Shown one piece after another: positions 2-27,217 of a DNA stretch of 32,273 nucleotides; position 1 is the stretch's first letter; each line of letters starts with the position of its first letter. Both the position numbers and the translations under genes were made by a program. The notes beneath the pieces were generated by a model. That model was not told the DNA's origin. It saw nothing but the letters and a program-made list of their open reading frames with translations, and searched no databases. Where the stretch lies: contig JAVVFP010000001.1 of NCBI GenBank assembly GCA_032250495.1, positions 1 to 32,273 of the forward strand, read 5' to 3'. This DNA comes from Bacteroidota bacterium. Its GTDB lineage: Bacteria > Bacteroidota > Ignavibacteria > SZUA-365.

Positions 2-1897
2 CTTACGGCGGCAATGCTGTGCGGCACCGCATCCCTGGTGGCACAGGAAGCGGTCGGGGATTCGACCGGTATACGGGACAGCCTCGCCACAGCGGGTCCG
101 GGATCGATCTCACTGGGTTTCGAGCGCAACGTCAACACCTTTCTCTGGGATTTCGGGGGAAATTATCGCTTCGAGGAAGGACCCTGGCAGATGACGGCGG
201 ACGAACGCTTTCAGCGGACACTCATCCGCACCGACCGCAGTACGGTCAAGGACGAACAGAGTTTCCGTCTCGATGCCATGCGCGAGCTGTCGAAGAATCT
301 CGCCGTGACCACTTCCTTCTCCTCCTTCATATTCTCCGACAATCGCGCACTCGCACTCAACGATCTTTCCACCAACAAGGCGCTGGCAGGCGTGCGATGG
401 TCACCGCTCGCCACACTGCAGGTCACACCGATGGCGGGGGTGAGCGTCGACAATCAGCAGGGCATAGAAGACCTCGGACTGATGTATGCCGGTAGCGCCA
501 CGCTGCACGACCTGGTGCTGGGACGCAACGTGGCACGCGCCGATCTGTACGCGTCGGCGGAGTATATCGATCCCCGCTTTCAATCCGAACAGCGCGGCAG
601 TGCGGATCTGCTCGCGAGCTTCGGCAATGAGAGCCTCAACCACACGCAGCTGACCATTCGGAACGTGCGGCGTGAATTCTATCTCGCGTACGATTCCACG
701 CTCGAAGCACAGACCGGTACCGGTCACCCGATTGAATCTCGGGACGAACGCATCGTCTCGCTCTCCAACACCCTGCGGTATCAGCTGTTGCGTCCCCTGG
801 ACCTGGTTGCCACCGTGGACCTGTCACAGCGTGACATTTCGCGCGCGCGCGCGGCTCGGCGCATAGACGACGAAAACCCCTTTTTCGACAACGACATCAG
901 TGAATTCCATCTCAACGGAAACCTCCAGTTGCGATATCACAATGGAGCAGGGACGCACGGCATGCTGCGCGTGGAAATCAATGAAAGGGACGAACAGCAC
1001 AGCATCTCTCCCTTCGAGGGCGCATCGAGCGTGAGCATCGCCCGCCAGGAACTGCTCGAGGAACAGAAGAACAACACAATACGACAGACGCAGCTCGCAC
1101 TGCAGCTGTCACAGGCCGTGAGTCGTCGTGACACGCTCTCGCTGTCCGCTTCGACGGTGAAAATGCAGTATGACACACCGAGCGACGAAAACTTCGACGA
1201 CCGCGACGAACTTTTCGTCCTCGCGGGCCTTCGCTGGGTGCACCGTTTCTCCCCGTATTTCCAGGCGTCCCTCAGCGGCGACGTCAACCTGCGGCACACG
1301 GTGTTCATTTTCGCAGAACGTAGTGCGAACAATACGTGGAACCGCGTCATTCGCCTCGCGCCTTCGACTGAGCTGCGCATCGGGCAGGGCGTGATCAGCC
1401 GCAACAGCGCGGAGATCGTGGCGAACTACACCGTGTATGATTTCGAAAGCGCGGCGGTCGCGCAGCGGAGTTATTCAATGCGGCAGCTCACGGTCAGTGA
1501 TTCCACCCTCGTACATCTCGGAGCGGACTTCTGGGCCGAGATGCAACTGCATGTCCGCGTCTACGAACGCGGGGAACTGCGCTGGACGGCTTTCACCGTG
1601 CGGCCCGTACAGTTCTTCGATGAGCGCACGATGTCGCTCTCGCTGCTCTGCCTGCGCGGCGATGTTCGCGCCACCGCCGGGTTCCGACTTTTCGAGCAGC
1701 GACGCTATCGCTACGAGGGAATAGAACGTACGCGAAGCGGGCTGCTACGCAGCTACGGTCCCACGGCGAGCCTGCGCTTTCATCTGTCGGGAATGGCGGA
1801 TATCATTGCGGAGGGGTGGTATCAACTCACCTCCGAGGGCAGCGGGGCGACCCGTACGACGCCGAACCTCTCGCTGCGTCTTCTCTGGAATCTGTGA
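2..1897 (+). CDS. hypothetical secreted / putative outer-membrane protein, 5' end cut by the window edge
   Basis: The frame is open from nt 2, with no stop before the ATG at 14. The first residues ..LTAAMLCGTASLVAQE look like the end of a signal peptide. The product exceeds 627 aa, has no long hydrophobic helix, and ends in amphipathic strand-like segments (..LSLRLLWNL). No family motif was recognised. Confidence 0.6.
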   Translation, partial: LTAAMLCGTASLVAQEAVGDSTGIRDSLATAGPGSISLGFERNVNTFLWDFGGNYRFEEGPWQMTADERFQRTLIRTDRSTVKDEQSFRLDAMRELSKNLAVTTSFSSFIFSDNRALALNDLSTNKALAGVRWSPLATLQVTPMAGVSVDNQQGIEDLGLMYAGSATLHDLVLGRNVARADLYASAEYIDPRFQSEQRGSADLLASFGNESLNHTQLTIRNVRREFYLAYDSTLEAQTGTGHPIESRDERIVSLSNTLRYQLLRPLDLVATVDLSQRDISRARAARRIDDENPFFDNDISEFHLNGNLQLRYHNGAGTHGMLRVEINERDEQHSISPFEGASSVSIARQELLEEQKNNTIRQTQLALQLSQAVSRRDTLSLSASTVKMQYDTPSDENFDDRDELFVLAGLRWVHRFSPYFQASLSGDVNLRHTVFIFAERSANNTWNRVIRLAPSTELRIGQGVISRNSAEIVANYTVYDFESAAVAQRSYSMRQLTVSDSTLVHLGADFWAEMQLHVRVYERGELRWTAFTVRPVQFFDERTMSLSLLCLRGDVRATAGFRLFEQRRYRYEGIERTRSGLLRSYGPTASLRFHLSGMADIIAEGWYQLTSEGSGATRTTPNLSLRLLWNL

Positions 1898-1959
1898 GCA
1901 GGATTTTCTACTTTACCTGAAAGCATCCCATCCAGGAGGGTTCCGATCTGAGCAAAGCC

Positions 1960-2373
1960 TTGATGACAAAGTCCATCAGCATCCCCAGTGTCCGCACCAA
2001 CATCAGCCTGGTCGAAGCATTCATCCTCGAGATACACGACGCGGTTTCACTGGAAGAATCCGTCCTCGACCGTATCATGATTTCCATCACCGAGGTTGTC
2101 AACAACGGGATCATACACGGCAACCAGGCCGATCCCGACAAGCAGGTGCATGTATCCTGCAGCTGCTATGATGACCGTGTCGATTTCGTGATCCGCGACG
2201 AAGGCACCGGTTTTCGTCCGGAGGACATTCCCGACCCGCTCGCAGAACCCAACCTGCTCAAGGAGGGCGGCCGCGGCGTACTGATCGTCCGTTCCATGAT
2301 GGACCGGGTCGATTTCCGCCACACAGAACGCGGCATGGAAGTGCATTTATCCATCCGACGCTCCGAGGACTGA
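1960..2373 (+). CDS. RsbW/SpoIIAB-type anti-sigma factor serine kinase (GHKL/HATPase_c fold)
   Basis: The N-box-like ITEVVNNGIIHG, G1-like RDEGTGF and G2-like EGGRGVLIV motifs lie in a 137-aa protein, the typical size and layout of anti-sigma regulatory kinases. The start is TTG 1960 or ATG 1963. Confidence 0.75.
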   Translation: MMTKSISIPSVRTNISLVEAFILEIHDAVSLEESVLDRIMISITEVVNNGIIHGNQADPDKQVHVSCSCYDDRVDFVIRDEGTGFRPEDIPDPLAEPNLLKEGGRGVLIVRSMMDRVDFRHTERGMEVHLSIRRSED

Positions 2374-2410
2374 GTCCCCCTCCCATCTTCACCGACCACA
2401 GGAAAAGTAC

Positions 2411-3442
2411 ATGCCCCACCGTCCCTATGTGCCCGGAGACGAAACCCGTCTCATGACCATACAGCGCTTCATCGCCCAGGAAGAACGCATGCATCCCGGG
2501 GCCACCGGAGAATTTTCCACGCTTCTCCGCAACCTTGCACTCGCCGTGAAAATCGTATCCCGTGAAGTCCGGCGTGCGGGACTTGTGGATATTCTCGGCC
2601 GCGCTGAGAGCACGAATCCGAGCGGTGAAGACGTAAAGAAACTCGATGTGTTCGCAAATCACATGATCATCAACGCCCTGGAGAGCGGCGGACAGCTTTG
2701 TGTTATGGCCTCGGAAGAAAACGAATCCATCATCCCCATACCCGAGGAATTTCCCTGTGGCAAGTACGCGATGCTCTTCGATCCCCTGGACGGGTCCTCG
2801 AATATCGAAGCCAATGTCACCATCGGCACCGTGTTCTCCATTTTCCGCCGTGTGAGCGAAGGCTGCCGCGGTACGGAAGCGGACGTGGTGCAGCCGGGAC
2901 TCAAGCAGATTGCCGCGGGTTATGTGATGTACGGATCCAGCACCATCCTCGTGTTCACCACCGGTAACCGTGTGCAGGGCTTCACGCTCGATCCTACCAT
3001 CGGATCCTTCCTTCTGTCGCATCCAGACATGACCATCCCTTCCCGCGGCAGTATATACAGCGTCAACGAGGGAAACCGTCTGCAGTGGGACGAAGGTTTC
3101 CTGCGCTATATCGCATACCTGCAGTCCCACGACACGACACTCGGGAAACCGTACAGGGCCCGCTATGTCGGATCCATGATCGCCGACGTGCACAGGACGC
3201 TGCTCTATGGCGGCATCTTTGCCTACCCGGCGGACAGCACCAATGGACACGGGAAACTCCGTCTCATGTATGAAGCAAATCCCATGGCGTTTATCATCGA
3301 GCAGGCGGGGGGACGCGCCACCGACGGTACCAGGCGTCTCCTGGAGATCGTACCGACAGATGTACATCAGCGCGTGCCCGTGTTTCTCGGCAGCACCGAA
3401 GATGTGCGCGAGGCGGAAGATTTCATCGCAGGACGCCGCTGA
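2411..3442 (+). CDS. fbp: fructose-1,6-bisphosphatase class 1
   Basis: Class I FBPase hallmarks are present: TIQRFI..EE, GEFSTLL, DPLDGSSNIEANV.IGT.FSI, YVGSM.AD.HR.L..GGIF.YP and YEANPMAFIIEQAGG.A.DG. The alternative start at Met15 (2453) is not excluded. Confidence 0.95.
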   Translation: MPHRPYVPGDETRLMTIQRFIAQEERMHPGATGEFSTLLRNLALAVKIVSREVRRAGLVDILGRAESTNPSGEDVKKLDVFANHMIINALESGGQLCVMASEENESIIPIPEEFPCGKYAMLFDPLDGSSNIEANVTIGTVFSIFRRVSEGCRGTEADVVQPGLKQIAAGYVMYGSSTILVFTTGNRVQGFTLDPTIGSFLLSHPDMTIPSRGSIYSVNEGNRLQWDEGFLRYIAYLQSHDTTLGKPYRARYVGSMIADVHRTLLYGGIFAYPADSTNGHGKLRLMYEANPMAFIIEQAGGRATDGTRRLLEIVPTDVHQRVPVFLGSTEDVREAEDFIAGRR

Positions 3443-3457
3443 CAGGGGCGCAGCCAA

Positions 3458-4228
3458 ATGAGGATCTCGCTCACCACCCTGTCGCTCGCCGTTCTGCTCC
3501 TGGCCGTCCATCCGGCGCAGGCGCAGCGATCCGCGGGAGACCGCGCCAACATCGACCCGCTGTTTCTTGTCGATATGCCTGTCGCCGGCATTCTTCCGGC
3601 GACCTCCGGTTCGGTGGAGACCTATCTCTATCCTGACGGCGGCGTTCTCGCAACCTTCACCTACGGTTTGATCACCAACCTCAATGTCGGCGTCGCTTTT
3701 GGCGGAACCCGCCTGATCGGCAGCGGCGGAATTACCTGGAACAATCTCCCGGGGGTGAACGTGCGCTTCCGCGCCATGGAGGAAAGCATGCGCAAGCCGG
3801 CCATTGTCGTGGGTTTCGATTCACAGGGTCATGATGGATGGTTGAAGGGCGCGCGGCAGTACGTGATGAAGTCACCAGGCTTTTTCGTCACCGCCAGCAA
3901 AAATTACCAGCTGCTCGGTACCATCAGCTTTCACGGAGGTGCCAACTATACGCTCGAACGTCATGACGGGGATATGGATCCGAACATTTTCCTCGGCGCC
4001 GAGAAATCCCTCGGCCCCATAACCTCCCTGTTGCTGGAATACAATTTCGCGTTCGACAATGACAGGGATCAGCGTGGCATCTTCAACGGAGCGCTCGGAG
4101 CCGGGGTTCGCGTTTCCACGAATATCGGTTTCAACCTGGATGTGCTCTTCAAAAACCTCCTCACCTCGGATTTCGCCTACGACAAGATTATCCGTGCCGT
4201 TCGGCTGCAATACGTACGATATCTCTAG
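3458..4228 (+). CDS. hypothetical secreted protein, probable small outer-membrane beta-barrel
   Basis: It has a clear signal peptide (MRISLTTLSLAVLLLAVHPAQAQ), an alternating hydrophobic/polar pattern, and a C-terminus ..RLQYVRYL. It starts 15 nt after the fbp stop. No family was recognised. Confidence 0.65.
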   Translation: MRISLTTLSLAVLLLAVHPAQAQRSAGDRANIDPLFLVDMPVAGILPATSGSVETYLYPDGGVLATFTYGLITNLNVGVAFGGTRLIGSGGITWNNLPGVNVRFRAMEESMRKPAIVVGFDSQGHDGWLKGARQYVMKSPGFFVTASKNYQLLGTISFHGGANYTLERHDGDMDPNIFLGAEKSLGPITSLLLEYNFAFDNDRDQRGIFNGALGAGVRVSTNIGFNLDVLFKNLLTSDFAYDKIIRAVRLQYVRYL

Positions 4229-4420
4229 CGTTGTCCATTATTTCGCACAGATATCGTCCTCTCTGGAGGTCACTTCGCATCCCCTTTCCCGGACACATAA
4301 AAAGAAGTAGCTTTTATGCAGCGGACAGAGCCATTTTCTCCCCCTGTCTGGGTGACAATTACGGCATGAAATTTGTTTCCTACTATAGTAGAGAAAACAT
4401 CGAAACCGATGAGGTGTGTC

Positions 4421-5422
4421 ATGAAACGATCAAATAACCTGCTACTCGCGCTCGCATCCGTCGTGCTGCTTGTCGGAACCTCCGGCTGCTACACACAGAT
4501 CGCCGTACGCGACGACTATCCCCGATACGAAGAATACGACTACGCGGACTACTCCGAGACCTATGAAGACACGCTCGGAAATGTCGTCACAAACAACTAC
4601 TACTACGACAGTTATCCCCGCACGTCGGCATATTTCGATTTTTACTACCCGGTGCGCTGGGGTTCCTACTGGTCCATGCATTATGATCCCTGGTACAGCT
4701 ACTACAGTCCTCCGTACTGGGGCTACTACAATCATTACTGGGATCCCTTCTGGTACGGACACTCCCCGTACTGGCATCGTCCTTACTACTATCCGCACAG
4801 CTGGGCCTATTACGGAAGCGGCGGGGGCGGCGGCTACTATTATGGTGGCGCCGTGCTCACAACGCGCCACACCGGTTCCCGCGTGCGCACCACCGGTGTG
4901 ACCCGCAGTATCAGCTCCAGGTCACGCTCAGTGGGAGCGACGCGCTCTGCAACCACGCGCTCGCGCGTTTCCCGTGTGACTGACGATGGACGCAGTTCCG
5001 TACGCTCCTCGACCACACGCAGTGGAAGCTACGAGCGTCTCAACAGGAGCTCGCGCGAATCGATCAACAGCACGCGTTCGCAGTCCGGCTCACGCTCCAC
5101 CTACGAGCGTGCACGAAGCAGTTCCGGCAGCTCGCGCGAATCGACACGCTCGCGGTCGAGTTCCGGCAGCTCGCGCGAATCGACGCGCTCAGGGTCGAGT
5201 TCCGGCAGCTCGCGCGAATCGACACGTTCGTCCACCCCGCGCTCGCGCAGCTCTTCGGGCAGCGGACGAAGCTACACACCGTCATCGCGTTCGGGAAGCA
5301 GTTCCTCGGGCAGCGGGCGGAGTTATTCACCACCCTCGCGCAGCTCCAGCGGAAGCAGTGGTCGTTCGTCCTCCGGCGGCAGCCGTTCGTCGAGCGGCGG
5401 CAGTCGCAGCCGTTCACGCTGA
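4421..5422 (+). CDS. lipoprotein with a Tyr/Trp-rich segment and an Arg/Ser-rich low-complexity tail
   Basis: MKRSNNLLLALASVVLLVGTSGC is a signal peptide with a lipobox-like TSGC. GAGG lies 6 nt upstream of ATG 4421; the ORF track's longer start at 4373 is TTG. GC-rich third codon positions support this frame over the overlapping alternative-frame ORFs. Confidence 0.75.
   Translation: MKRSNNLLLALASVVLLVGTSGCYTQIAVRDDYPRYEEYDYADYSETYEDTLGNVVTNNYYYDSYPRTSAYFDFYYPVRWGSYWSMHYDPWYSYYSPPYWGYYNHYWDPFWYGHSPYWHRPYYYPHSWAYYGSGGGGGYYYGGAVLTTRHTGSRVRTTGVTRSISSRSRSVGATRSATTRSRVSRVTDDGRSSVRSSTTRSGSYERLNRSSRESINSTRSQSGSRSTYERARSSSGSSRESTRSRSSSGSSRESTRSGSSSGSSRESTRSSTPRSRSSSGSGRSYTPSSRSGSSSSGSGRSYSPPSRSSSGSSGRSSSGGSRSSSGGSRSRSR
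5120..5236 (+). repeat. 3 x 39-bp in-frame tandem repeat inside the lipoprotein gene
   Basis: The units run 5120-5158, 5159-5197 and 5198-5236 and share agttccggcagctcgcgcgaatcgac(a/g)cg, encoding SSGSSRESTRS(R/G)S. Looser repeats follow: about 48 bp x 2 near 5250-5345 (SSSGSGRSY(T/S)P..SRS) and about 21 bp x 2 near 5350-5400 (GRSSSGGS/RSSSGGS). Confidence 0.9.
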
Positions 5423-5559
5423 TCGAGTGGAGAACCCCGATCGCACGAATGTGCGATGACAGAAGCTGCTCCGTCAATCGCTAGTAATGTTTCGAAGAGA
5501 AATTTGCACCCGTTCCGGATCTGACACACCTCGTCGGAATGGTTCATCAGGAGGTCACC

Positions 5560-7071
5560 ATGAAACGCGCAGTATCTTTGCTTTTCTTTTTTCTCATCGC
5601 CTGGTCCACGGAATCGCAGGCCCAGGTGATTGAAGACGCCCTGCGTCTCTCGCGGCCCGGTAGCATTGTCGGTACACGAAGTGCTGGCATGGGGAACGCG
5701 TTCATCGGACTCGCCAACGACGCGACGGCGTTGTACTGGAACCCGGCCGGACTCGGTCAGCTGCGCATGCGCGAGTTTTCTCTCGGACTTTCGAACAACG
5801 GAATGAGCAACGACGCCACGATGTTCAATATGACCACGAACGGGGACAACAGCGGGACGGTGCTCACCAATCTTAATTTCGCCGTTCCCTTTCCCGTGGT
5901 GCGCGGCAGCTTTGTTCTTGCCGCCGGGTACAACCGCCTCCTCGATTACAACGGCGCGATGATGGTGGATGTTTACAATCCCGAGAGCTCCATTCAGGCC
6001 TCGCTGTTCAACGACGACATCGATCTGGATTTCGCGTGGAATCTCGGACTCGAAGACGTGCTGGTCGATTCCCTTCTCGATGAAGGCCTGCCGGGCTGGC
6101 TCGCCATTCCTGTCGCCAACCGCGTGCAGCAGACCATTGACGTCGAGGAAGAAGGCGGACTCAACCAGTGGTCCGTCGGTGGGAGCACCGAGCTCGCCCG
6201 GGGAGTGATGGTCGGCGCCGCACTGAACGTGCTCAGCGGTTCTTACCGCTACGAGCGCCTTTTCGTCGAGCGCGACATCAACGGTGTCTGGCAGGGCTCG
6301 ATTCTCGGCATCAATCCGAACAGCGACGACTCTGATCTTCTCCGCACTGATTTCGAGGAACTGGAATTGCTCGAGGAGATTCAACAGGATCTTTCCGGCT
6401 GGAACATGCGCTTCGGTTTCCTTTACAATTACCGCGACAAGGCGCGTTTCGGCGTCTCGATACAGACGGCGAGCCGGATCACGGTCAACGAGGATTACTA
6501 CAAGTCGGGGAACAGCTACTTCGGCGACGGCTCCGGAGAAGGGTACGACCTCACATTCGAAAACCACAACTACGAGATCATCACGCCCGCGATTTACGGT
6601 TTCGGCGCTTCTGTCACGCCCGTGGAATTCGCCACGGTATCCGCGGATTTCGAGCTGGTCGATTTCTCCGAGATTGAATTCGATGCAAGCAACGACCTCG
6701 ACGCGCTCACGCTCAGTGATTTCAACCGTGACATCCGCAACACCTTCCGCGCCACGAATAACTTCCGCATCGGTGCTGAGTTTCTCGTTCCGAACACGGG
6801 ACTCGCTCTCCGCGGCGGATTCGGCTACCGCTATTCGCCGTACGAAGCCGACGAAGGGAAGAGTGAATACGACGTGACCTCGCTCTCCGCCGGACTCGGT
6901 TACCGCTTCGATAATAATTTCAGCATACAGGCTGCGTACGTGCACGCGAGTTACGAGACCTTTGCCTACAATTACATCGATCCGGATCTCGACGTACCTG
7001 AATCCGGCTTCCGCGTGGACCAGGAAATCACCCTGTCGCAGCTCATGTTCGGCGTGGTCTACCGCTTCTGA
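5560..7071 (+). CDS. outer-membrane beta-barrel protein, FadL/PorV-like (OMPP1/FadL/TodX superfamily-like)
   Basis: AGGAGG lies 6 nt upstream of ATG 5560. The signal peptide is MKRAVSLLFFFLIAWSTESQAQ. The N-terminal motif SAGMGNAFIGLANDATALYWNPAGLG is typical of FadL-like and PorV-like barrels, and the C-terminus ..MFGVVYRF ends in Phe, as in outer-membrane proteins. Confidence 0.6.
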   Translation: MKRAVSLLFFFLIAWSTESQAQVIEDALRLSRPGSIVGTRSAGMGNAFIGLANDATALYWNPAGLGQLRMREFSLGLSNNGMSNDATMFNMTTNGDNSGTVLTNLNFAVPFPVVRGSFVLAAGYNRLLDYNGAMMVDVYNPESSIQASLFNDDIDLDFAWNLGLEDVLVDSLLDEGLPGWLAIPVANRVQQTIDVEEEGGLNQWSVGGSTELARGVMVGAALNVLSGSYRYERLFVERDINGVWQGSILGINPNSDDSDLLRTDFEELELLEEIQQDLSGWNMRFGFLYNYRDKARFGVSIQTASRITVNEDYYKSGNSYFGDGSGEGYDLTFENHNYEIITPAIYGFGASVTPVEFATVSADFELVDFSEIEFDASNDLDALTLSDFNRDIRNTFRATNNFRIGAEFLVPNTGLALRGGFGYRYSPYEADEGKSEYDVTSLSAGLGYRFDNNFSIQAAYVHASYETFAYNYIDPDLDVPESGFRVDQEITLSQLMFGVVYRF

Positions 7072-7092
7072 CATATGACGATACACACCCCG

Positions 7093-7126
7093 ACCCCGCG
7101 GCTGCTTGCTGTCGCGGGGTTTTTTC
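7093..7126 (+). terminator. rho-independent terminator after the FadL-like gene
   Basis: An 8-bp GC stem, accccgcg (7093-7100) with cgcggggt (7113-7120), encloses a 12-nt loop and is followed by a T6 run. Confidence 0.8.
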
Positions 7127-7244
7127 TTGCTGATCCGCCAGCGGTGCCGCGCCATACCGGACCACTTCCTACGTTGCTTTATAATGCATGTCCCACTATA
7201 TTGCCTAGCTTGAATATCTGTTCTTTCTTCGTGGAGTATCAAAC

Positions 7245-9350
7245 ATGGCTATGATGACCAAAATGCGCGACAATGCGCACGTTTTCATCGTCGCATTCAT
7301 CGTGGTTTTCGTCGCCTTCTGGGTTATAAGCGACGTCGATCTCGGTTCCATTATGCAGGGGTCCGTCAACGAGATCGGCAATGTCGGCGGTAAATCCATC
7401 ACGTACCAGGAATACCAGGCCGTAGTCGACCGCGTTGCCGAGCAGCGTCGACAGGAGAATGGAGGCCGGGAACTGACCGAAAACGACTTTATGCAGATTC
7501 GCGAGCAGGTCTGGAATGACTTCGTCACCCAGGCAATCGTGGAAAACGCGATAGAGGAATTCGGCATCACCGTCTCCGACCAGGAGATAACCGACTGGGT
7601 ATGGGATCTGCGCAACCCCCCCGAACAGCTGGCCCAGTATTTCATGGACAGCACCGGTCGTTTCAATGCGCAGAATTACGAGCAGTTCCTGCGGAATCCG
7701 GGTCCGGAAAACGAGGAAGCGCTCATCGCCGTAGAGCAGCAGCTCAAGTCCGAACTGCTGCGCTCGAAGCTCACCAACGTGCTCACATCCTCGGTCATCG
7801 TTTCCGAGGAGGACATACGCTGGAAGTACATTGAGAACAACATTGATTTCAATGCCAGCTATGTTTTCTTCGATCCCCGCGTTTTCGCCGCAGGCGACAC
7901 CAGCGAACCGACGGACGCGGAATACAAGGCCTACTACGAGAAGAACAAGGATCGTTTCAAAATCGACGATATGCGCGTCCTGCAATACGTTCTTTTCGCC
8001 GACAGTCCCTCCAAGAGCGATACTGCGGCCATCGTCAATGAGCTGAACACCATTACGAATCTCGTCAGCGAAGGCACGGATTATCTCGAGCTCGTCGAAC
8101 TGAACTCAGAGGTACCCTACGACAGTACCGTGTGGACCACACGGGATAATGTCGCAGAGCCCGTCGCCGAGCAGGCATTTTCGGCTCCGGTCGGCTCCAT
8201 CGTCGGCCCCATTCCCAACGAGACGGGTCTCTCCCTGTTCAAGGTGATGGACGCCCGAGAAGGGGAGAACACGCTGTACAGTGCTTCGCACATTCTGCTG
8301 CGCACCGACGGCGGTCAGGATGACGCGGCACAGAAAGCCAAGGCCGAGGAAGTTCTCGCCCGGGCAAAGTCCGATGAGGATTTCAAAAAACTCGCCGCCA
8401 TGTATTCCGAGGAACCGGGCGCAGCCGAGCGTGGGGGAGCCCTTCCCTGGTTCGGCAAGGGTCGCATGGTAAAGGAATTCGAAGACGCCGTCATGAACGC
8501 CCGCGCCGGTCAGATCGTCGGCCCGGTCAAGACGCAGTTCGGATACCACATCATCAAGGTAAACGGTTCCTCGAAGCGCGAAGTCAAGCTCGCGGAGATT
8601 CGCATGTCCATCCGTGCCGGATCGCGCACGATGGAGGAAATCTTCGAACGCGCCCGCAACTTCGCTTACTTCGCGAATGAAAACGGCTTCGAAGCGGAAG
8701 CGGAGGCGCAGGGACTCCAGGTTCAGGAGACCCCCGAGTTCGCGCGCCAGACAGGATCTTACGTCCCCGGCATTGGCACAAGTCCGGCGATGCTGCGTTT
8801 CGCTTTCGAGAACAGCGTCGGTGACATAAGTGAAGTACACCGTGCTAGTGGCGGCTATGTCGTAGCCATGATCGCGGACGAACGCGATGCCGGCTATCGT
8901 CCCCTCGACGAGGTTCGGGATCAGATCCGCGCACAGGTGGTATATGAGCGTCAGATCGAAAAAACGCATGAAATCGCCCGCCAGGTCGCCGGTAGCGGCA
9001 AGTCGCTCGAGGCTATCGCCGGAAGCGATCCGAAACTCAACGTGACAACGCCACCGCCCTTCAAGCTGCAGAACGGCATCCCCAATATCGGGCCCGACCA
9101 GGCCTTCATCGGTCGCCTTCTGAAACTGAACGTCGGTCAGATGACCGAACCGTTCCGCGGTCTTCGTGGCATTTACGTCGCGAAACTCGATGCGAAATCC
9201 GCCTTCGACGAAACCGCTTACAAAGTCAAGAAGGACGAACTGCGCAAGCAGCAGCTTTCCAGCCTGCAGAACGAGTTCATTCAGTCGTGGATCGAGCAGA
9301 AGCGGGACGACATCGAAATCGTTGACAACCGCTATCGTTTCTTCCGCTGA
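7245..9350 (+). CDS. ppiD: periplasmic chaperone / peptidyl-prolyl isomerase, PpiD-like (SurA-N plus parvulin domain)
   Basis: It has an N-terminal membrane anchor (AHVFIVAFIVVFVAFWVISDV). A parvulin rotamase domain is present: ASHILL....EEPGAAERGGALPWFGKGRMVKEFEDAV....GQIVGPVKTQFGYHIIKV. The 701-aa length matches PpiD-type proteins. Confidence 0.85.
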   Translation: MAMMTKMRDNAHVFIVAFIVVFVAFWVISDVDLGSIMQGSVNEIGNVGGKSITYQEYQAVVDRVAEQRRQENGGRELTENDFMQIREQVWNDFVTQAIVENAIEEFGITVSDQEITDWVWDLRNPPEQLAQYFMDSTGRFNAQNYEQFLRNPGPENEEALIAVEQQLKSELLRSKLTNVLTSSVIVSEEDIRWKYIENNIDFNASYVFFDPRVFAAGDTSEPTDAEYKAYYEKNKDRFKIDDMRVLQYVLFADSPSKSDTAAIVNELNTITNLVSEGTDYLELVELNSEVPYDSTVWTTRDNVAEPVAEQAFSAPVGSIVGPIPNETGLSLFKVMDAREGENTLYSASHILLRTDGGQDDAAQKAKAEEVLARAKSDEDFKKLAAMYSEEPGAAERGGALPWFGKGRMVKEFEDAVMNARAGQIVGPVKTQFGYHIIKVNGSSKREVKLAEIRMSIRAGSRTMEEIFERARNFAYFANENGFEAEAEAQGLQVQETPEFARQTGSYVPGIGTSPAMLRFAFENSVGDISEVHRASGGYVVAMIADERDAGYRPLDEVRDQIRAQVVYERQIEKTHEIARQVAGSGKSLEAIAGSDPKLNVTTPPPFKLQNGIPNIGPDQAFIGRLLKLNVGQMTEPFRGLRGIYVAKLDAKSAFDETAYKVKKDELRKQQLSSLQNEFIQSWIEQKRDDIEIVDNRYRFFR

Positions 9351-9415
9351 TCCCCGCGGAACTTTTCGGCCGTTCTTCCCATTGTCAGGAATAGCGAAGA
9401 TCTGCTGAATACGAA

Positions 9416-10153
9416 TTGAGGAAAAGCATGCAAATCCCCCGGTGGAGTCATACGTATACCGTACTGCGCCGGGGGATTTTCTTATCCGTCCTTCTTATAC
9501 TTCCGTGCCGCGAGGCGCTGGTCTCGCAGCCACGGCTGCACGCGATTTCCGTTTCCGCGGGACTGATAGAAGATTCGCGCATCTTCGTTTCCCCGCAATC
9601 ACCCGATCCGGTCGAGAGGCAGCGCACTACCAACCTCGGTGCGACCACGGGCTACGGCGCCAGTTATCGCTACCGCCTGTACCAATCCGTCACACTGCAG
9701 CTGCACGGCGAATTCGTGCATACGCGCAGCAGCTCACGTGATTTGGCCGGGACGCGAATGGAGAACGGTTTCGATATCTGGCTGCTGGAAGTGGCCGGTA
9801 TGTTTTCACTTCCGTTCAGCTCCGACCGCTTCGAGATGTATGTGGGAGGCGGAGCGGGAGTGTATGTCGGACGCCGCAGTTATGCGGTCGCGGACGCCAT
9901 ATCGGAAACAGTATCAGCTGTTCCCGCATTCGGCATACATATTCTGGTGGGGGCGGAATACCTGTTGACGCGCCATCTGGGCATTCGCGCCGACGTTGTC
10001 TTCCGTGATCCCCAGATGTCCGTCGAGAACCGTTTTCGTCAGTCCTCGGTGACCGCCAATGGTATCGTGTACGAACTCGGGACCGCACCATTTCTCTCAC
10101 ATGTCAACCTCAACGGAAACATCTACTCCCTGGGAGTTTCCTGGCACTTCTGA
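9416..10153 (+). CDS. hypothetical outer-membrane beta-barrel protein
   Basis: It has a hydrophobic N-terminal signal-like segment (GIFLSVLLILP), a repeated amphipathic strand pattern, and a C-terminal ..YSLGVSWHF (terminal Phe). The start is TTG 9416 or ATG 9428. Confidence 0.6.
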   Translation: MRKSMQIPRWSHTYTVLRRGIFLSVLLILPCREALVSQPRLHAISVSAGLIEDSRIFVSPQSPDPVERQRTTNLGATTGYGASYRYRLYQSVTLQLHGEFVHTRSSSRDLAGTRMENGFDIWLLEVAGMFSLPFSSDRFEMYVGGGAGVYVGRRSYAVADAISETVSAVPAFGIHILVGAEYLLTRHLGIRADVVFRDPQMSVENRFRQSSVTANGIVYELGTAPFLSHVNLNGNIYSLGVSWHF

Positions 10154-10183
10154 CCGGCCGCGCACTGGCGGCAGCATTTCCCC

Positions 10184-11815
10184 TTACATTTTTTCCGGCG
10201 CCGCAATCCCGATAATGGAAAAACCGTTCGCCAACACCTGACGTGCTGCCTGGCAGAGCGCGATGCGCGCAGTGCTGAGTTCCCTGTCCTCGGTCACGAC
10301 GCGGCAATCATGGTAAAACCTGTGGAACGCCGTCGCCACGCCGTGCAGGTAGGTACAGATATGCTGTGTCTCGTAGGTGCGTGCGGAGAGCTGTATGATG
10401 TCCCCGAAGCGCAGCAGCTCTTTTATCAGCGCAGTCTCCGACTCGTGCGTCAGCAGTTCGAGTTTCGCCGCGCCACCTGCGGACATGCCTTCGCTTTCCG
10501 CGAAACGCAAGATGCTTGCAATGCGTGCATGGGCGTACTGCAGGTAATACACCGGGTTGTTCTCGCTCTGCTCCTGCGCGAGACGGATGTCGAATTCCAG
10601 ATGTGAACTGGCACCGCGCATGATGAAAAAATAGCGGACCGCATCGCTGCCGACATCATCGATCAGCTCGTCGAGCGAATAGACATTGCCGGAGCGTTTG
10701 CTCATCTTCACCGTTTCCCCTTCGTTGACGAAACTCACCATCTGGTGTATGATGACGTCGACATGGTCGGTGGAGAGACCGAAGGAACGCACCGCGGCAA
10801 GGACATCGGGAATGGTGGCGATGTGATCAGCGCCGAAGATATCTATGATGCGGTCATAACCGCGGAGAATCTTGTCCTTGTGATACGCAATGTCGGGAAG
10901 GCGATAGGTCGGTTCCCCGCTGCTCTTTACAATCACCCGGTCCTTGTCCGCACCGAACTCCGTGCTTTTCAGCCACACAGCGTCATCCTTGTCATAGGCC
11001 AGTCCGTTCTCGCGGAGGTCTGCAAGCACTGCGTCAATTTTCCCATCCCTGTAGAGGCTGTCCTCGTTGAAAAACACGTCATGCTTGACCTGCAGCCGCT
11101 TCAGCGTCTCCTGTATGGTCGCGAAGCACCAGGTCTCTCCCGCCGTGCGAAAGAAATCGAGATCAGCCTCCATTTTCGCATCGCCGTGCGCATCGGCAAT
11201 ATTCCGTGCAATATCACGAATGTAATCCCCGGCGTAATGCACGTTTTCCTCGCTTTCCTTTTCACCGAACAGCGCCCGGTAGCGCTCGCGCACGGTGATG
11301 GCGAGGTTTTGCATCTGGTTTCCGGCATTGTTGAAGTAGTATTCCCGCGTCACCTTCCATCCGGTGCGTTCCAGCAGCGCACAGACGGTCTCCCCGATGC
11401 ACACCTGCCTCCCATGTCCGGCATGCAATGGTCCCGTAGGATTTGCGCTCACCCATTCGACGTTGACCGTCCTTCCTCCATGCAGGTCTGTCGCGCCGTA
11501 GCGATCCCGCTGCTCCAGGATATAGGAGACGCCTGCGTAGAGGTGATCAACGGAAAAACGGAAATTGATGAATCCCGGGCCGGCGATCTCAACGGCCGCA
11601 ATTTTCCCGCTGTCGAGTTCAAGCCTGTCGACGAGATCCTGTGCTATCTGGCGGGGATTTTTTTTTGCGACGCGCGAGAGAGTCATGGCCACATTCGTGG
11701 AGAGATCCCCGTGATCGGCGATTTTTGGTTTTTCGAACTGTATGTCTGCTGAAGCGGGGTCGAAGCCGAGAGCGGCAAGAGCCGTCTCGATGCACTGTTT
11801 CAGGTATTGTTTCAT
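10184..11815 (-). CDS. argS: arginine--tRNA ligase
   Basis: Class I signatures are present: SANPTGPLHAGHGR (HIGH) and KMSKRSG (KMSKS). An Arg-tRNA-synthetase N-terminal domain and a DALR-type C-terminus ending ..APEKM complete the match. The product is 543 aa. Confidence 0.95.
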   Translation of the reverse strand: MKQYLKQCIETALAALGFDPASADIQFEKPKIADHGDLSTNVAMTLSRVAKKNPRQIAQDLVDRLELDSGKIAAVEIAGPGFINFRFSVDHLYAGVSYILEQRDRYGATDLHGGRTVNVEWVSANPTGPLHAGHGRQVCIGETVCALLERTGWKVTREYYFNNAGNQMQNLAITVRERYRALFGEKESEENVHYAGDYIRDIARNIADAHGDAKMEADLDFFRTAGETWCFATIQETLKRLQVKHDVFFNEDSLYRDGKIDAVLADLRENGLAYDKDDAVWLKSTEFGADKDRVIVKSSGEPTYRLPDIAYHKDKILRGYDRIIDIFGADHIATIPDVLAAVRSFGLSTDHVDVIIHQMVSFVNEGETVKMSKRSGNVYSLDELIDDVGSDAVRYFFIMRGASSHLEFDIRLAQEQSENNPVYYLQYAHARIASILRFAESEGMSAGGAAKLELLTHESETALIKELLRFGDIIQLSARTYETQHICTYLHGVATAFHRFYHDCRVVTEDRELSTARIALCQAARQVLANGFSIIGIAAPEKM

Positions 11816-11854
11816 ATGATGTCGGCCGGGGAGAAATCAGTTACTGGATGAGTA

Positions 11855-12202
11855 TCAGTCGTCTTTCACGCGCGTGACCGGGGCATCTCCCCAGAGCCGT
11901 TCGATGTCGTAGTACGCGCGGGTTTTCGGCGTGAAGACGTGGACGACCACATCGACGAAGTCGAGAAGAACCCATTGGAGATTCTCGAATCCTTCCTTGC
12001 GCCACACCTTGGATCCGCGTTCGCGCGTCCCGTCGACCACGGCATCAGCAATCGCCTTCACCTGCGTATCCGATTCACCGCTGCAGATCACAAAAAAATT
12101 TGTCACGTCCGATAAGCCGGTCAAATCCAGCACCAGCACATCCTGGGCTTTCTTTGTCAATGTCAGTTCCGCCGCATGGCGGGCGAGTTCTTTTGCTTCC
12201 AC
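11855..12202 (-). CDS. rsfS: ribosome silencing factor RsfS (iojap family)
   Basis: The 115-aa product carries LVLDL...S.VTNFFVICSG.S..QVKAIAD and W.LLDF.DVVVHVF....R.YY.IE.LW, the characteristic RsfS/iojap pattern. Confidence 0.9.
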   Translation of the reverse strand: MEAKELARHAAELTLTKKAQDVLVLDLTGLSDVTNFFVICSGESDTQVKAIADAVVDGTRERGSKVWRKEGFENLQWVLLDFVDVVVHVFTPKTRAYYDIERLWGDAPVTRVKDD

Positions 12203-12223
12203 AGCGATCCTGTTTCGTGAGCG

Positions 12224-12697
12224 TTATTCCGAGGGCCTGAGTTTCTCGTAGTCGCGTCCTATGACCACGGAAACGTTCAAATAATAATCGGGATTTATCT
12301 GCTGTACGATGTTGCTTTCATCTATGCCCAGCGCATAGGCGACTTTTCGGGCTGCGGCGAGATCGCCGGTACGGTCGATGACGAGCGATTGCTCGACGTC
12401 GAAGGTCTTGTAATTTGAAGACTGCACGACATCAAAATTGCGCTTGCGCAGAAAATCCGTGAAATCCTGCGCGATGCCTGAAACGCCGCAGCCATTGAGC
12501 ACATCCAGCTGAATGATCTCGCCGGAAGCATCCCCCTTGTTCGCGTTCTCCGTCTTCCAGTCCACCGGCTTGTTCACGATGGAATTCGTGATGAATGAAT
12601 ACAGAAGGAAAAAGACGACGACGCTCAGAAGCGCGATGAGAATATTGAGAAAGAGGCTTTTCGGACTCAGTTGCTTTTTCTTGTTGACCCTTGTCAT
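12224..12697 (-). CDS. membrane-anchored LytR_C domain protein
   Basis: A TM segment (LNILIALLSVVVFFLLYSFI) is followed by VLNG.G.SG.A......L....F.V......N......S.V.., as in the LytR cell-envelope-related C-terminal domain. I prefer the start at MTRVNKKK (12697), because the longer ORF (to 12775) would overlap the upstream gene. Confidence 0.7.
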   Translation of the reverse strand: MTRVNKKKQLSPKSLFLNILIALLSVVVFFLLYSFITNSIVNKPVDWKTENANKGDASGEIIQLDVLNGCGVSGIAQDFTDFLRKRNFDVVQSSNYKTFDVEQSLVIDRTGDLAAARKVAYALGIDESNIVQQINPDYYLNVSVVIGRDYEKLRPSE

Positions 12698-12761
12698 ACC
12701 CAAATATACGAAAAAAAGCCGAGCACAAGACCCGGCTTCCATCTCTGTCGTCAATCGTTCC

Positions 12762-13277
12762 CTACCATTCGTCATCCCCGAAGGACGGGAAAAGTCCCAC
12801 GCTGTTGTACATCCCGTACCGACCGTAGCCGCCGTCGTACGGGTTGTACGTCCCGTAGGGATAGGCGCGGTACTGAAGGCTGATTTTCATATCCTTGCGC
12901 GGCTCATAATCTATGCTTGCGCGGCGGAGAAAGACGCCGGAAATGTCGTTCTTGAACATCTGGCTCGCAGAACCGAAGGGAGAAAACATCATCGATATGT
13001 CGGCACGAACGGAAAGTGGCTCAGAAATCCGGTAACGCAGACTGTTCGTGTACATGGAAACACCGAGCCCCTGATCTCCCATCATTCCGTAACTCAAAGA
13101 AAGGCTGTGGCGCATCTGAAGGTTCTCCGGGTGGAAAAAACCCAGAATGGCGCCACCGCTCTCCTGGTAGACACCTTCGGCCACCGAAGGTCTGCGTGGC
13201 TCCTCGCCGCGAAACTGTGCCGGGAGCAGCATCGGGAAGAGGAGAAGCAGGAATAGTGGAGGGATAATGCGCTTCAT
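12762..13277 (-). CDS. hypothetical small secreted protein
   Basis: The internal Met at 13277 gives a clean signal peptide (MKRIIPPLFLLLLFPMLLPAQ). The Gly/Tyr-rich C-terminus is YPYGTYNPYDGGYGRYGMY. No family was recognised. Confidence 0.55.
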   Translation of the reverse strand: MKRIIPPLFLLLLFPMLLPAQFRGEEPRRPSVAEGVYQESGGAILGFFHPENLQMRHSLSLSYGMMGDQGLGVSMYTNSLRYRISEPLSVRADISMMFSPFGSASQMFKNDISGVFLRRASIDYEPRKDMKISLQYRAYPYGTYNPYDGGYGRYGMYNSVGLFPSFGDDEW

Positions 13278-13486
13278 GGAAAACCATCTTTGTCCAGAAA
13301 AACAGTACTGAATTCTACGCAGCCGGGTGATAAAAAACAAGTCACACAGGCGTCACACGCGCACGCGCGCAGGCGACAAACGCCAGGCACTGCACGGCAG
13401 AAAAAACTTCGAAAAATTATTCCACCGTAAGTCTTTACGTTGCGTGTACTTTGAAAAAATCAAGTCCCGAACGAAATATTTTCATA

Positions 13487-13515
13487 TTGAAATTCACTTC
13501 CGCGGTCTCTATACT
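13487..13515 (+). promoter_or_regulatory. candidate sigma70-type promoter upstream of dnaA
   Basis: TTGAAA (13487-13492), an exact 17-nt spacer and TATACT (13510-13515) are read directly from the sequence. A perfect DnaA box lies about 28 nt downstream of the -10 element. It is unknown whether this organism uses E. coli-type -35/-10 elements. Confidence 0.35.
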
Positions 13516-13542
13516 AGTCCACATCCACAGAGCGTTTTTCAT

Positions 13543-13551
13543 TGTGGATAA
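13543..13551 (-). promoter_or_regulatory. perfect DnaA box (TGTGGATAA, the reverse complement of TTATCCACA) upstream of dnaA
   Basis: This is an exact 9-mer match to the consensus. Degenerate boxes lie nearby: acatccaca (13521-13529) and atatccata (about 13573-13581). Confidence 0.7.
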
Positions 13552-13789
13552 GTTGTGAGTAACACCCGTTGATATCCATACACGGCGTCGCATCCGGTTC
13601 CTGTCGGCCACATTCCCGCCGCGTAACCACGAGACACCTCTGTCTATTTTTTTCTAAGACACGTTAAACAAAGGATTTAGCGCGATACGCGCCGAATTCT
13701 GTGGGGTGTTGTGTTTTCTCTCCGGAAACGGCCGATTCGTGTCAATAATAATGACTCCTCATCTGAAATCTGTGAATAACTCCTTGCCC

Positions 13790-20946: not shown

Positions 20947-20963
20947 GGCAGGAAGAAACAGAA

Positions 20964-23135
<2,172 letters not shown>

Positions 23136-27130: not shown

Positions 27131-27217
27131 GCTCGAGTGGCGGAATTGGCAGACGCGCTGGACTCAAAATCCAGTGGGGTAAAACCCGTGCCGGTTCGAT
27201 CCCGGCCTCGAGTACCA
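27131..27217 (+). tRNA. tRNA-Leu (anticodon CAA), class II with long variable arm, CCA encoded
   Basis: I folded the cloverleaf by hand. The acceptor stem is gctcgag with ctcgagt. The D arm is gcg-gaattggcaga-cgc. The anticodon stem ctgga/tccag holds the loop ctCAAaa. The long variable arm is tggggtaaaacccgt and the T arm is gccgg-ttcgatc-ccggc. The discriminator is A, followed by CCA. Confidence 0.9.

Follow-up and report, generated by a model that had tools for sequence, protein, structure and literature searches.

A tyrosine-rich, predicted disordered lipoprotein of Ignavibacteria-type Bacteroidota and the FadL-family barrel encoded beside it

An open reading frame (ORF) at positions 4421 to 5422 of the DNA analysed here, a stretch of 32,273 nucleotides from a member of the Ignavibacteria (Bacteroidota) which is referred to as the window throughout, encodes a protein of such extreme composition that it raises the question of whether it is a gene at all and, if so, with which partner its product might act. 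Judged by its conservation, 4421..5422 is a genuine gene under purifying selection, and its product is a signal peptidase II-type lipoprotein by the lipobox rule. Sequence and literature searches indicate that it belongs to an unnamed, previously undescribed family of Ignavibacteria-type Bacteroidota. We tentatively read the protein as a lipid-anchored, intrinsically disordered outer-membrane protein that forms a dedicated pair with the FadL-family barrel encoded downstream and, in most loci, also works with a 12-stranded barrel encoded upstream. Such a lipoprotein-barrel pair, put forward as possible rather than probable, would best explain that the pairing of the two genes is invariant, that the residues following the lipidated cysteine are nearly so, and that single positions are conserved in a chain for which no fold is predicted.

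The gene, its family and its anatomy

A scan of one genome per species returned three homologues, one in an 'Ignavibacteria bacterium' metagenome-assembled genome (MAG; L002) and two in 'Bacteroidetes' MAGs (L003 and L004), all of them full-length ORFs of 320–328 amino acids with the same architecture, frame and position. The region from 14 to 15217 of the window is fully syntenic in L002, L003 and L004; the lipoprotein is 47–53% identical to its counterparts, and its neighbours are mostly 63–82% identical, the two weakest 35–57%. In the alignment of the lipoprotein genes synonymous sites are near saturation and every indel is a multiple of three, and the ratio of non-synonymous to synonymous substitution rates (dN/dS, Nei-Gojobori) is 0.07–0.09 in the acidic and aromatic head, 0.18–0.36 in the tail and 0.13–0.21 overall. 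The annotated frame is the sole frame open in all four homologues, and long ORFs in the alternative frames are not conserved. The conserved frame, the low dN/dS and the closed alternative frames thus rule out an artefact or a wrong frame. An earlier reading, made from the letters of the window only (the sequence-only reading), had named a frame not kept in relatives, or membership of a characterised family, as findings that would speak against it; the frame is kept in L002–L004, and no Pfam or NCBIfam family takes in the protein.

A word-indexed single-sequence search gave only one homologue, P0001 (65% identical), on contig L001. It was considered as a tail-less homologue and rejected, as this contig of 2.2-fold coverage carries a frameshift after the aromatic block, behind which the database protein runs into unrelated sequence, and the tail resumes in the +1 frame:

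ENA ERZ794997 (contig L001, 855 bp), about 590–855: Arg/Ser/Thr tail in the next frame of the frameshifted homologue

No database record was returned when the proteins of the window themselves were looked up by exact sequence. An exhaustive phmmer search with residues 1–175 against 1.84 billion cluster representatives yielded 37 clusters at E ≤ 1e-3, mostly of 290–345 amino acids, and a profile of 29 heads yielded 99 clusters at E ≤ 1e-5, where it should be kept in mind that all homology searches used the head and not the tail and that E-values on low-complexity sequence need caution. The aromatic block, for which the sequence-only reading had proposed a search for homologues, therefore represents a conserved family. 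All source names of the clusters read 'hypothetical protein', and the taxonomic range of the family rests on the organism names supplied by the sequence sources, namely Ignavibacteriales, Melioribacter sp., Melioribacteraceae and unclassified Bacteroidota/Bacteroidetes MAGs. At E ≤ 0.01 neither Pfam-A nor NCBIfam had a model that matches the window protein or one of 29 members, and the faint likeness to YXWGXW-repeat proteins that had been suspected was not borne out, since no YXWGXW or WXXGXW model, if these libraries hold one, was among the matches. A sequence-profile search of the PDB with the head profile found no solved chain at E ≤ 0.1, the best weak row, sticholysin (E = 0.11), being dismissed as noise, and the literature searched gave no earlier description of an Ignavibacteria lipoprotein that is rich in tyrosine or disordered. 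With the family, more than 100 'hypothetical protein' clusters gain a grouping worth a name. It is widespread in Ignavibacteria-type bacteria, compositionally extreme and tied to an outer-membrane machinery of topical interest, and it has cultivable relatives in Melioribacter and Ignavibacterium.

The anatomy of the family was read from an alignment of 51 sequences (A4). In the window the gene is composed as follows:

4421..5422, plus strand: lipoprotein coding sequence, 333 amino acids and stop, translation without internal stops
4421..4489, plus strand: signal peptide and lipobox by a PROSITE-type rule (amino acids 1–23, Cys23 codon at 4487-4489); N-terminus MKRSNNLLLALASVVLLVGTSGC, then YTQ
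4487..4501, plus strand: C-Y-T-Q-[LIVF], candidate docking motif, the most conserved stretch of the family
4490..4576, plus strand: acidic, Tyr-containing head segment RDDYPRYEEYDYADYSETYED (amino acids 24–52)
4577..4852, plus strand: hyper-aromatic block (amino acids 53–144) with Y-Y-P, Y-D-P-W, Y-W-D-P-F/W and Y-P motifs and a Gly/Tyr run at its end
4853..5419, plus strand: polar polycationic tail of Ser, Arg, Gly and Thr (amino acids 145–333)
4880..4909, plus strand: junction motif S-R-V-R-T-T-G-V-T-R, family consensus R-x-R-T-x-G-x-T-R, seen in alignments A2 and A4
5120..5230, plus strand: 39-nt tandem repeat inside the tail, 2.8 copies, 91% identical, encoding SSGSSRESTRSR(S) units (Tandem Repeats Finder)
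5321-5344, plus strand: tail motif S-Y-S-P-P-S

As lipobox criterion we used a basic N-terminus, a hydrophobic core and the pattern [LIVMFWSTAG]2-[LIVMFYSTAGCQ]-[AGS]-C with the cysteine at about position 15–35. This coded PROSITE-type rule is passed by the window protein (Cys23) and by 46 of the 51 family members, with an invariant G-C, so that the lipobox-type signal peptide first recognised in the single sequence is upheld. G22, C23, Y24 and T25 are invariant and Q26 is kept in 92% of the sequences; CYTQ follows in 47 members and CYTR in the other 4, and the best gap-free 7-mer of the whole alignment is formed by the lipobox together with CYTQ. The net charge over the first 45 mature residues amounts to -7 in the window protein and to -8 in the family median, and a D-Y-S-E-T-Y-x-D motif is kept among the closer members.

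Residues 30–144 (nt 4510-4850, 115 amino acids) contain 32 Tyr, 8 Trp and 3 Phe, 43 aromatic residues altogether; the sequence-only reading had counted them exactly, and the strings that it quoted are present. Among the 17 other genes of the window the maximum per 115 amino acids is 20, and at the local background of 8.4% the binomial probability of 43 aromatics in 115 residues is about 8e-18. Family-wide, the head (about 124 amino acids) consists of 22% Tyr, 6% Trp, 31% aromatic residues in all and 7% Pro and has a net charge of -8, which stems mostly from its first 45 residues. Its conservation is position-specific: Y75 is found in 100% of the sequences, Y76 in 94%, P77 in 98%, P90 in 92%, W91 and W100 in 86% each, Y107 in 94% and P109 and P125 in 98% each. 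Because single Tyr, Trp and Pro positions are 86–100% conserved, the aromatic head does not reflect mere compositional bias, and the earlier description of the mature protein as almost entirely low-complexity does not do justice to the head. For the motif [YWF][DNS]P[WFY] there are 85 occurrences, as compared with 10.9 in composition-preserving shuffles, an excess that largely restates two homologous conserved positions.

The junction to the tail is conserved as well (R156 98%, G159 84%, R162 100%). Amino acids 166–333 comprise 74 Ser, 34 Arg, 19 Gly and 13 Thr, with about 5% hydrophobic residues, which agrees with the composition and the lack of a hydrophobic core noted earlier; the length of about 190 residues given at that time has to be corrected to 168 if the tail is split off at residue 166, or to 180 if it is begun at R-x-R-T-x-G-x-T-R near residue 154. 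In the family the tail (median 157 amino acids) is 15% Arg, 1% Lys, 18% Ser, 19% Gly and 7% hydrophobic with a net charge of +18, and carries the motifs R-x-Y-S-P-P-P-S, S-P-P-P (98%) and G-G-x-R-G-G-x-R-R; the window protein terminates in G-G-S-R-S-R-S-R, and 46 of the 51 members end in Arg. The juxtaposition of a [G/S]Y-rich and an RS/RG-rich segment, which had been pointed out in the single protein, is therefore a conserved property of the family. Because the number of SSGSSR(E)ST units differs among the four close homologues (the window protein and L002–L004) in the alignment, the Arg/Ser tail evolves by gain and loss of repeat units. In another 44 metagenome loci, tail expansion spreads the mature length over 240 to 424 amino acids; some of the tails are Lys-rich, and no member among these loci has gained a folded domain. 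Two sub-lineages (L017/L018/L034 and L022/L026/L028) have longer tails (mature length 384–424 amino acids), one of them Lys-rich (15%).

The 5' region shows conservation of its own. An alternative in-frame ATG at 4409 (MRCVMKR...) is a possible second start, and alignment of five homologous loci revealed two elements:

4361-4377, plus strand: conserved 5' element ACGGCATGAAATTTGTT, about 45–60 nt upstream of the start region, from the alignment of five upstream regions
4404-4428, plus strand: near-invariant 25 nt AACCGATGAGGTGTGTCATGAAACG covering both candidate start codons

The TTTG inside ACGGCATGAAATTTGTT resembles a promoter element of Bacteroidota. Synonymous sites in the coding regions of the same five loci are saturated, and the two elements suggest constraint at the nucleotide level (a translation initiation region or leader) or the use of the upstream ATG at 4409.

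Structure prediction, which the sequence-only reading had recommended, returned no structure for the mature chain. AlphaFold2, run with the alignment of 51 sequences, gave a mean predicted local distance difference test (pLDDT) score of 49 and a predicted template modelling score of 0.26; the only predicted secondary structure is the signal helix (residues 5–21, pLDDT 84–93), and the mature chain stays below a pLDDT of 50–60. Together with the position-specific conservation, the model suggests a mature lipoprotein that has no order by itself and acquires it on a partner or at the membrane interface, though a fold beyond the reach of AlphaFold2 could give the same picture.

Gene neighbourhood and the flanking barrels

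The gene order in the window is FBPase, a 256-amino-acid secreted protein, the lipoprotein, a 510-amino-acid barrel of the FadL/Toluene_X family, a SurA-like peptidyl-prolyl isomerase, a small outer-membrane protein and, on the opposite strand, ArgRS. The features next to the lipoprotein gene are:

3458..4228, plus strand: upstream 256-amino-acid secreted protein, predicted 12-stranded outer-membrane beta-barrel, often but not always part of the cassette
5539..7071, plus strand: downstream 510-amino-acid FadL/TodX-family outer-membrane barrel, the invariant genomic partner
7092..7121, plus strand: terminator-like hairpin after the FadL-family gene (11-bp stem, 8 G-C pairs, T tract), from a consensus scan only

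In five distant members of the family, which lie on long contigs, just a three-gene core is retained, i.e. a protein of about 255–272 amino acids, the lipoprotein and the FadL-family barrel; their outer flanks differ, CysRS preceding the core and penicillin amidase or RsgA coming after it. Metagenomes were scanned with SGCYTQ[LI], a motif from an alignment of 8 sequences, as the seed; this returned 48 loci, 44 of them distinct, whose six-frame ORFs were searched with profiles of both neighbours. Each of the 26 loci with enough sequence has a FadL-family gene immediately downstream in the same orientation, and with nine earlier loci the count rises to 35 of 35, whereas the gene of the 12-stranded barrel lies upstream in 17 of the 26 and in 26 of the 35 loci (both locus counts include related metagenome contigs). 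Unrelated genes take its place where it is missing. As the downstream gene is present in 35 of 35 loci and the upstream one in 26 of 35, the universally conserved unit is the lipoprotein together with the FadL-family barrel, and from the constancy of this arrangement the two probably work together. The long-tailed L022/L026/L028 group belongs to those without the upstream barrel gene. In the 26 metagenome loci the gap between the lipoprotein and FadL-family genes is 4–35 nt in about 10, the genes overlap in 4, and 69–542 nt separate them in the rest, as measured between stop-to-stop ORF limits and not between called starts. The consensus scan found no terminator-like site between the two genes in the window and a strong one behind the barrel gene. 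The SurA-like neighbour had raised the idea of an operon for outer-membrane protein biogenesis, which was rejected since the adjacency of SurA is confined to the close relatives of the window and the terminator-like site separates the genes.

Membership of the 510-amino-acid neighbour in the FadL/TodX (OMPP1) family follows from its Pfam match to Toluene_X (PF03349; 58.5 bits, cutoff 29.7). For this protein and five orthologues the best NCBIfam model is BamG (46–88 bits, 58 in the window protein), far short of the NF053685 cutoff of 250 and covering model positions of about 111–380 only, so that they are not assigned to BamG; against the PorV/PorQ model they reach 38–53 bits, mainly over the N-terminal region, at a cutoff of 90. 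A profile search of the PDB returned TbuX (2e-9), CymD, 9hiv_F (7e-5), TodX, FadL and the N-terminus of PorV. We take 9hiv_F to be BamG; it is apparently the outer-membrane protein of a structure of the Bacteroidota beta-barrel assembly machinery (BAM). Judged by these scores the neighbour is a FadL-family barrel that can be placed in no subfamily.

The upstream 256-amino-acid protein was modelled by AlphaFold2 as a barrel of 12 strands (pLDDT 84.6). Its top Foldseek matches in the PDB are FapF, the invasin beta-domain, the COG4313 channel and NanC, at TM-scores of about 0.45–0.5, which are generic for 12-stranded barrels, and Pfam gave no match to this 256-amino-acid protein even at E ≤ 10. 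Two distant relatives, P0218 and P0219, do pass the Pfam YjbH model (PF06082; 28.6 and 25.4 bits, cutoff 24) over model positions 10–141 of 658, where the N-terminal 12-stranded barrel of GfcD/YjbH begins (PMC11494523), and hhalign of the family with YjbH of E. coli gave a probability of 31% (E = 5e-4). Other distant relatives (L010, L011) stand alone, with neither a lipoprotein nor a FadL-family gene. In GfcD/YjbH itself a canonical 12-stranded barrel is joined to a second one that opens laterally, and the genes of a low-complexity secreted protein (GfcA/YjbE) and of a lipoprotein belong to the same operon (PMC11494523). The likeness is that relatives of the upstream barrel reach the Pfam threshold at the start of the N-terminal barrel; the differences are the low hhalign probability of 31% for this family, the 5.8% for the FadL-family neighbour, and the lipoprotein loci having no linked polysaccharide genes. 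An origin of the cassette from a split GfcD/YjbH was considered and is unsupported, because only the upstream barrel is weakly YjbH-like and the FadL-family neighbour shows no such similarity. In both barrels the likely signal cleavage exposes an N-terminal Gln (AQA|QRSAG in 3458-4228, SQA|QVIED in 5539-7071), which fits the 'Q-rule' for Bacteroidetes signal peptidase I substrates as outlined in PMC5837995.

A possible mechanism and its rivals

In our tentative model of a dedicated pair, lipidation and Lol transport would place the acyl chains of the lipoprotein in the outer membrane, and the C-Y-T-Q N-terminus and the aromatic/Pro block would bind either the barrel wall or the interface of the membrane, the type of site that Tyr and Trp residues favour. 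The head would become ordered only on binding, which would account for conserved positions without a predicted fold in the free chain. The variable Arg-rich tail (net charge about +18 to +29) might project as a polycationic tether or brush and contact anionic envelope polymers such as peptidoglycan, lipid head groups or lipopolysaccharide (LPS) by its bulk charge and a few short linear motifs, among which S-Y-S-P-P-P and the C-terminal G-G-x-R-x-R may make specific contacts.

The least secure step is the side of the membrane. Export of Bacteroidota lipoproteins to the surface follows a rule of at least two acidic residues in the six positions after the cysteine (PMC12578637). Such a signal (at least 2 Asp/Glu at +2 to +7) is present in none of the 51 family members, of which two have one such residue, although the rule was established in Bacteroidia and Flavobacteriia and may not apply to Ignavibacteria. 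Owing to this lack of a Bacteroidota-type surface-export signal, an inner-leaflet anchor with a periplasm-facing tail is favoured, which is at odds with the fact that all characterised partners of FadL-family barrels are surface-exposed.

Recent cryo-EM work, with two papers of 2025, has established FadL-family barrels of Bacteroidota as platforms: BamG holds the surface lipoprotein BamH, and PorV binds the cargo of the type IX secretion system (T9SS) (PMC12611786, PMC12578637). The conserved lipidated N-terminus of BamH is wedged against BamG with its acyl chains packed between BamA and BamG, and BamG2 and BamH2 form an operon (PMC12611786, PMC12578637); bamG and bamH are adjacent in many deep lineages of the Fibrobacteres–Chlorobi–Bacteroidetes (FCB) group, including Ignavibacterium album (IALB_1455/IALB_1454; PMC12611786, Supplementary Table 1). 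By analogy, the lipoprotein appears functionally to most resemble such pairs, as in BamH-BamG and BamH2-BamG2 a lipoprotein with a conserved N-terminus at the lipidated cysteine is likewise co-encoded with a 14-stranded barrel of the FadL family (PMC12611786, PMC12578637). It is not assigned to BamH, since AlphaFold2 gave no fold and the head profile found no solved chain even though 9hiv_F was in that library. The T9SS pairs PorV-PorU and PorQ-PorZ are similar in that FadL-family barrels hold partner proteins and in that the neighbour matches the PorV/PorQ model over its N-terminal region; PorU and PorZ differ, however, in being large folded proteins, the window lipoprotein has no T9SS C-terminal domain, and its neighbour stays below the PorV/PorQ cutoff of 90.

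For the disordered chain itself RcsF and other outer-membrane lipoproteins with disordered linkers, as well as BilRI, may serve as comparison, all being lipid-anchored envelope proteins with a functional disordered segment. In RcsF, which pairs with OmpA/C/F, the disordered segment can thread through or lie against the barrel. The whole chain of BilRI of Aggregatibacter is disordered and lipid-anchored (PMC5383217). Unlike the window lipoprotein, these proteins are short, not aromatic-rich and without a dedicated co-encoded barrel, and they have no sequence relationship to the family. Likeness to FUS-type proteins with prion-like and RGG regions is one of composition only, i.e. a Tyr-rich disordered block beside a Gly/Ser block rich in Arg and not in Lys, whereas the window protein is bacterial, secreted and lipidated, has 31% instead of about 10–15% aromatic residues, and keeps Trp and Pro at fixed positions.

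Several points weigh against a dedicated pair of this kind. BamH, the closest functional parallel, is a folded two-domain surface lipoprotein with a carbohydrate-binding-like fold and an acidic export signal, while the window lipoprotein is predicted to be disordered and has no such signal. The adjacency of two genes does not prove a complex, and the roles proposed for the tail are drawn from charge and composition. Moreover, low pLDDT can mean that AlphaFold2 missed a fold, given a shallow and biased alignment, and the 510-amino-acid neighbour may be an ordinary transporter, its best PDB scores being those of the hydrocarbon channels TbuX and TodX.

The same observations can be combined in other ways. 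A lipoprotein that reaches the surface, possibly through or alongside the flanking barrel, might form by Tyr-Arg contacts a gel-like, sticky coat or condensate that binds LPS, exopolysaccharide or extracellular DNA or serves adhesion. The conserved Tyr-rich and Arg-rich blocks, with Arg far exceeding Lys, match the Tyr/Arg 'sticker' rule of FUS-family proteins, and the chain is predicted to be wholly disordered; the characterised partners of FadL-family barrels in Bacteroidota are all surface-exposed (PMC12611786, PMC12578637), Bacteroidota BamA has a flexible extracellular loop rich in Tyr, Gly and Asn, and the upstream 12-stranded barrel, where present as it often is, belongs to a type (FapF, invasin beta-domain) in which unfolded polypeptide is conducted or housed. 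We nevertheless consider a coat rather unlikely: none of the 51 members has the acidic export signal, which argues mildly against the simplest surface coat, 9 of 35 loci are without the 12-stranded barrel, and the conservation of single positions, together with the short linear motifs, speaks for specific binding and not for bulk material behaviour. A related idea, which we rate as quite unlikely, is that the lipoprotein is threaded or held by the FadL-family barrel, with or without the 12-stranded one, never folds alone, and forms with its Tyr/Trp head and Arg tail a self-associating condensate- or brush-like layer. If true, this would amount to a barrel-dependent way of displaying a lipoprotein that differs from the known export signal of Bacteroidota, and to the first envelope protein of bacteria with a Tyr-Arg sticker grammar as its basis. 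The aromatic, lipid-anchored chain might instead be an accessory of uptake which captures or relays hydrophobic or aromatic compounds such as fatty acids and hydrocarbons at the lateral opening of a FadL/TodX barrel, with Arg binding carboxylates. Strict co-encoding of the two proteins, the match of the neighbour to Toluene_X and its closest solved relatives by profile (TbuX, CymD, TodX) would agree with this; to our knowledge, however, no FadL/TodX system has been reported to require a lipoprotein, the loci lie among housekeeping genes and not in catabolic operons, and a basic tail of 160–290 residues would have no obvious role in it, so that such a function seems unlikely.

Involvement in BAM would make the neighbour an Ignavibacteria BamG or a BamG2-like paralogue and the lipoprotein a lineage-specific, BamH-like accessory whose aromatic block mimics or binds aromatic-rich signals of outer-membrane proteins. 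BamG is the best NCBIfam model for most orthologues of the neighbour, bamH and bamG lie side by side in I. album and in further deep lineages of the FCB group, and a gene for a SurA-like chaperone follows in the window. As this adjacency of SurA is not kept in distant loci, the BamG scores fall far below the 250-bit cutoff with the model partly covered, 9hiv_F scores below TbuX, and the lipoprotein shows neither sequence similarity to solved chains nor the fold that defines BamH, a role in BAM appears distinctly improbable. Still more improbable would be a role as subunit of a secreted fibre or amyloid which the 12-stranded barrel exports in a Fap- or curli-like manner, or which is cross-linked by dityrosine like Tyr-rich coat proteins. 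The richness in Tyr and Gly would fit, and FapF was ranked first by Foldseek for the upstream barrel, but with a TM-score of about 0.48 that is generic for 12-stranded barrels. Furthermore, a quarter of the loci lack the barrel, whose relatives are found by themselves elsewhere, the loci have no linked gene for an oxidase or a peroxidase, Tandem Repeats Finder found no repeat units in the aromatic block, in which no beta structure is predicted, and the lipoprotein is lipid-anchored rather than a free subunit and was not assigned to the CsgA/FapC type, which is marked by imperfect tandem repeats in a beta-solenoid.

Taken as a dedicated lipoprotein-barrel pair, the locus suggests a further case of FadL-barrel–lipoprotein pairing, beside BamG-BamH and PorV-cargo, across Ignavibacteria-type bacteria. 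If the pairing is physical, it raises the questions of how a barrel recognises a disordered hyper-aromatic chain, how positions are conserved without a stable fold and whether bacteria make use of self-association driven by Tyr and Arg in the envelope.

Other features of the window

The 627-amino-acid ORF at 14-1897 has no Pfam or NCBIfam match, is found at the same position in L002–L004 with 67–70% identity and ends in ...LRLLWNL; its product could be another outer-membrane protein. The window probably spans the chromosomal replication origin, because dnaA lies at 13706-15217 (Pfam Bac_DnaA; region 11816-15217), the G+C content falls to 0.51–0.53 at 12–16 kb and the cumulative GC skew has its minimum at about 14–15 kb.

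A protein of 1230 amino acids (23309-27001) contains Ig-like/ASH-type repeats and a C-terminal match to Por_Secre_tail of 24.2 bits, just under the cutoff of 27 bits. It is a probable T9SS cargo, and the organism therefore probably has a T9SS. A single tRNA gene at 27131-27214 is the only Rfam match in the window at the gathering threshold. Finally, ordinary metabolism is represented by two methylmalonyl-CoA mutase genes side by side at 18838-23135, which belong to the large-subunit and the small-subunit type; the second includes a B12-binding domain.

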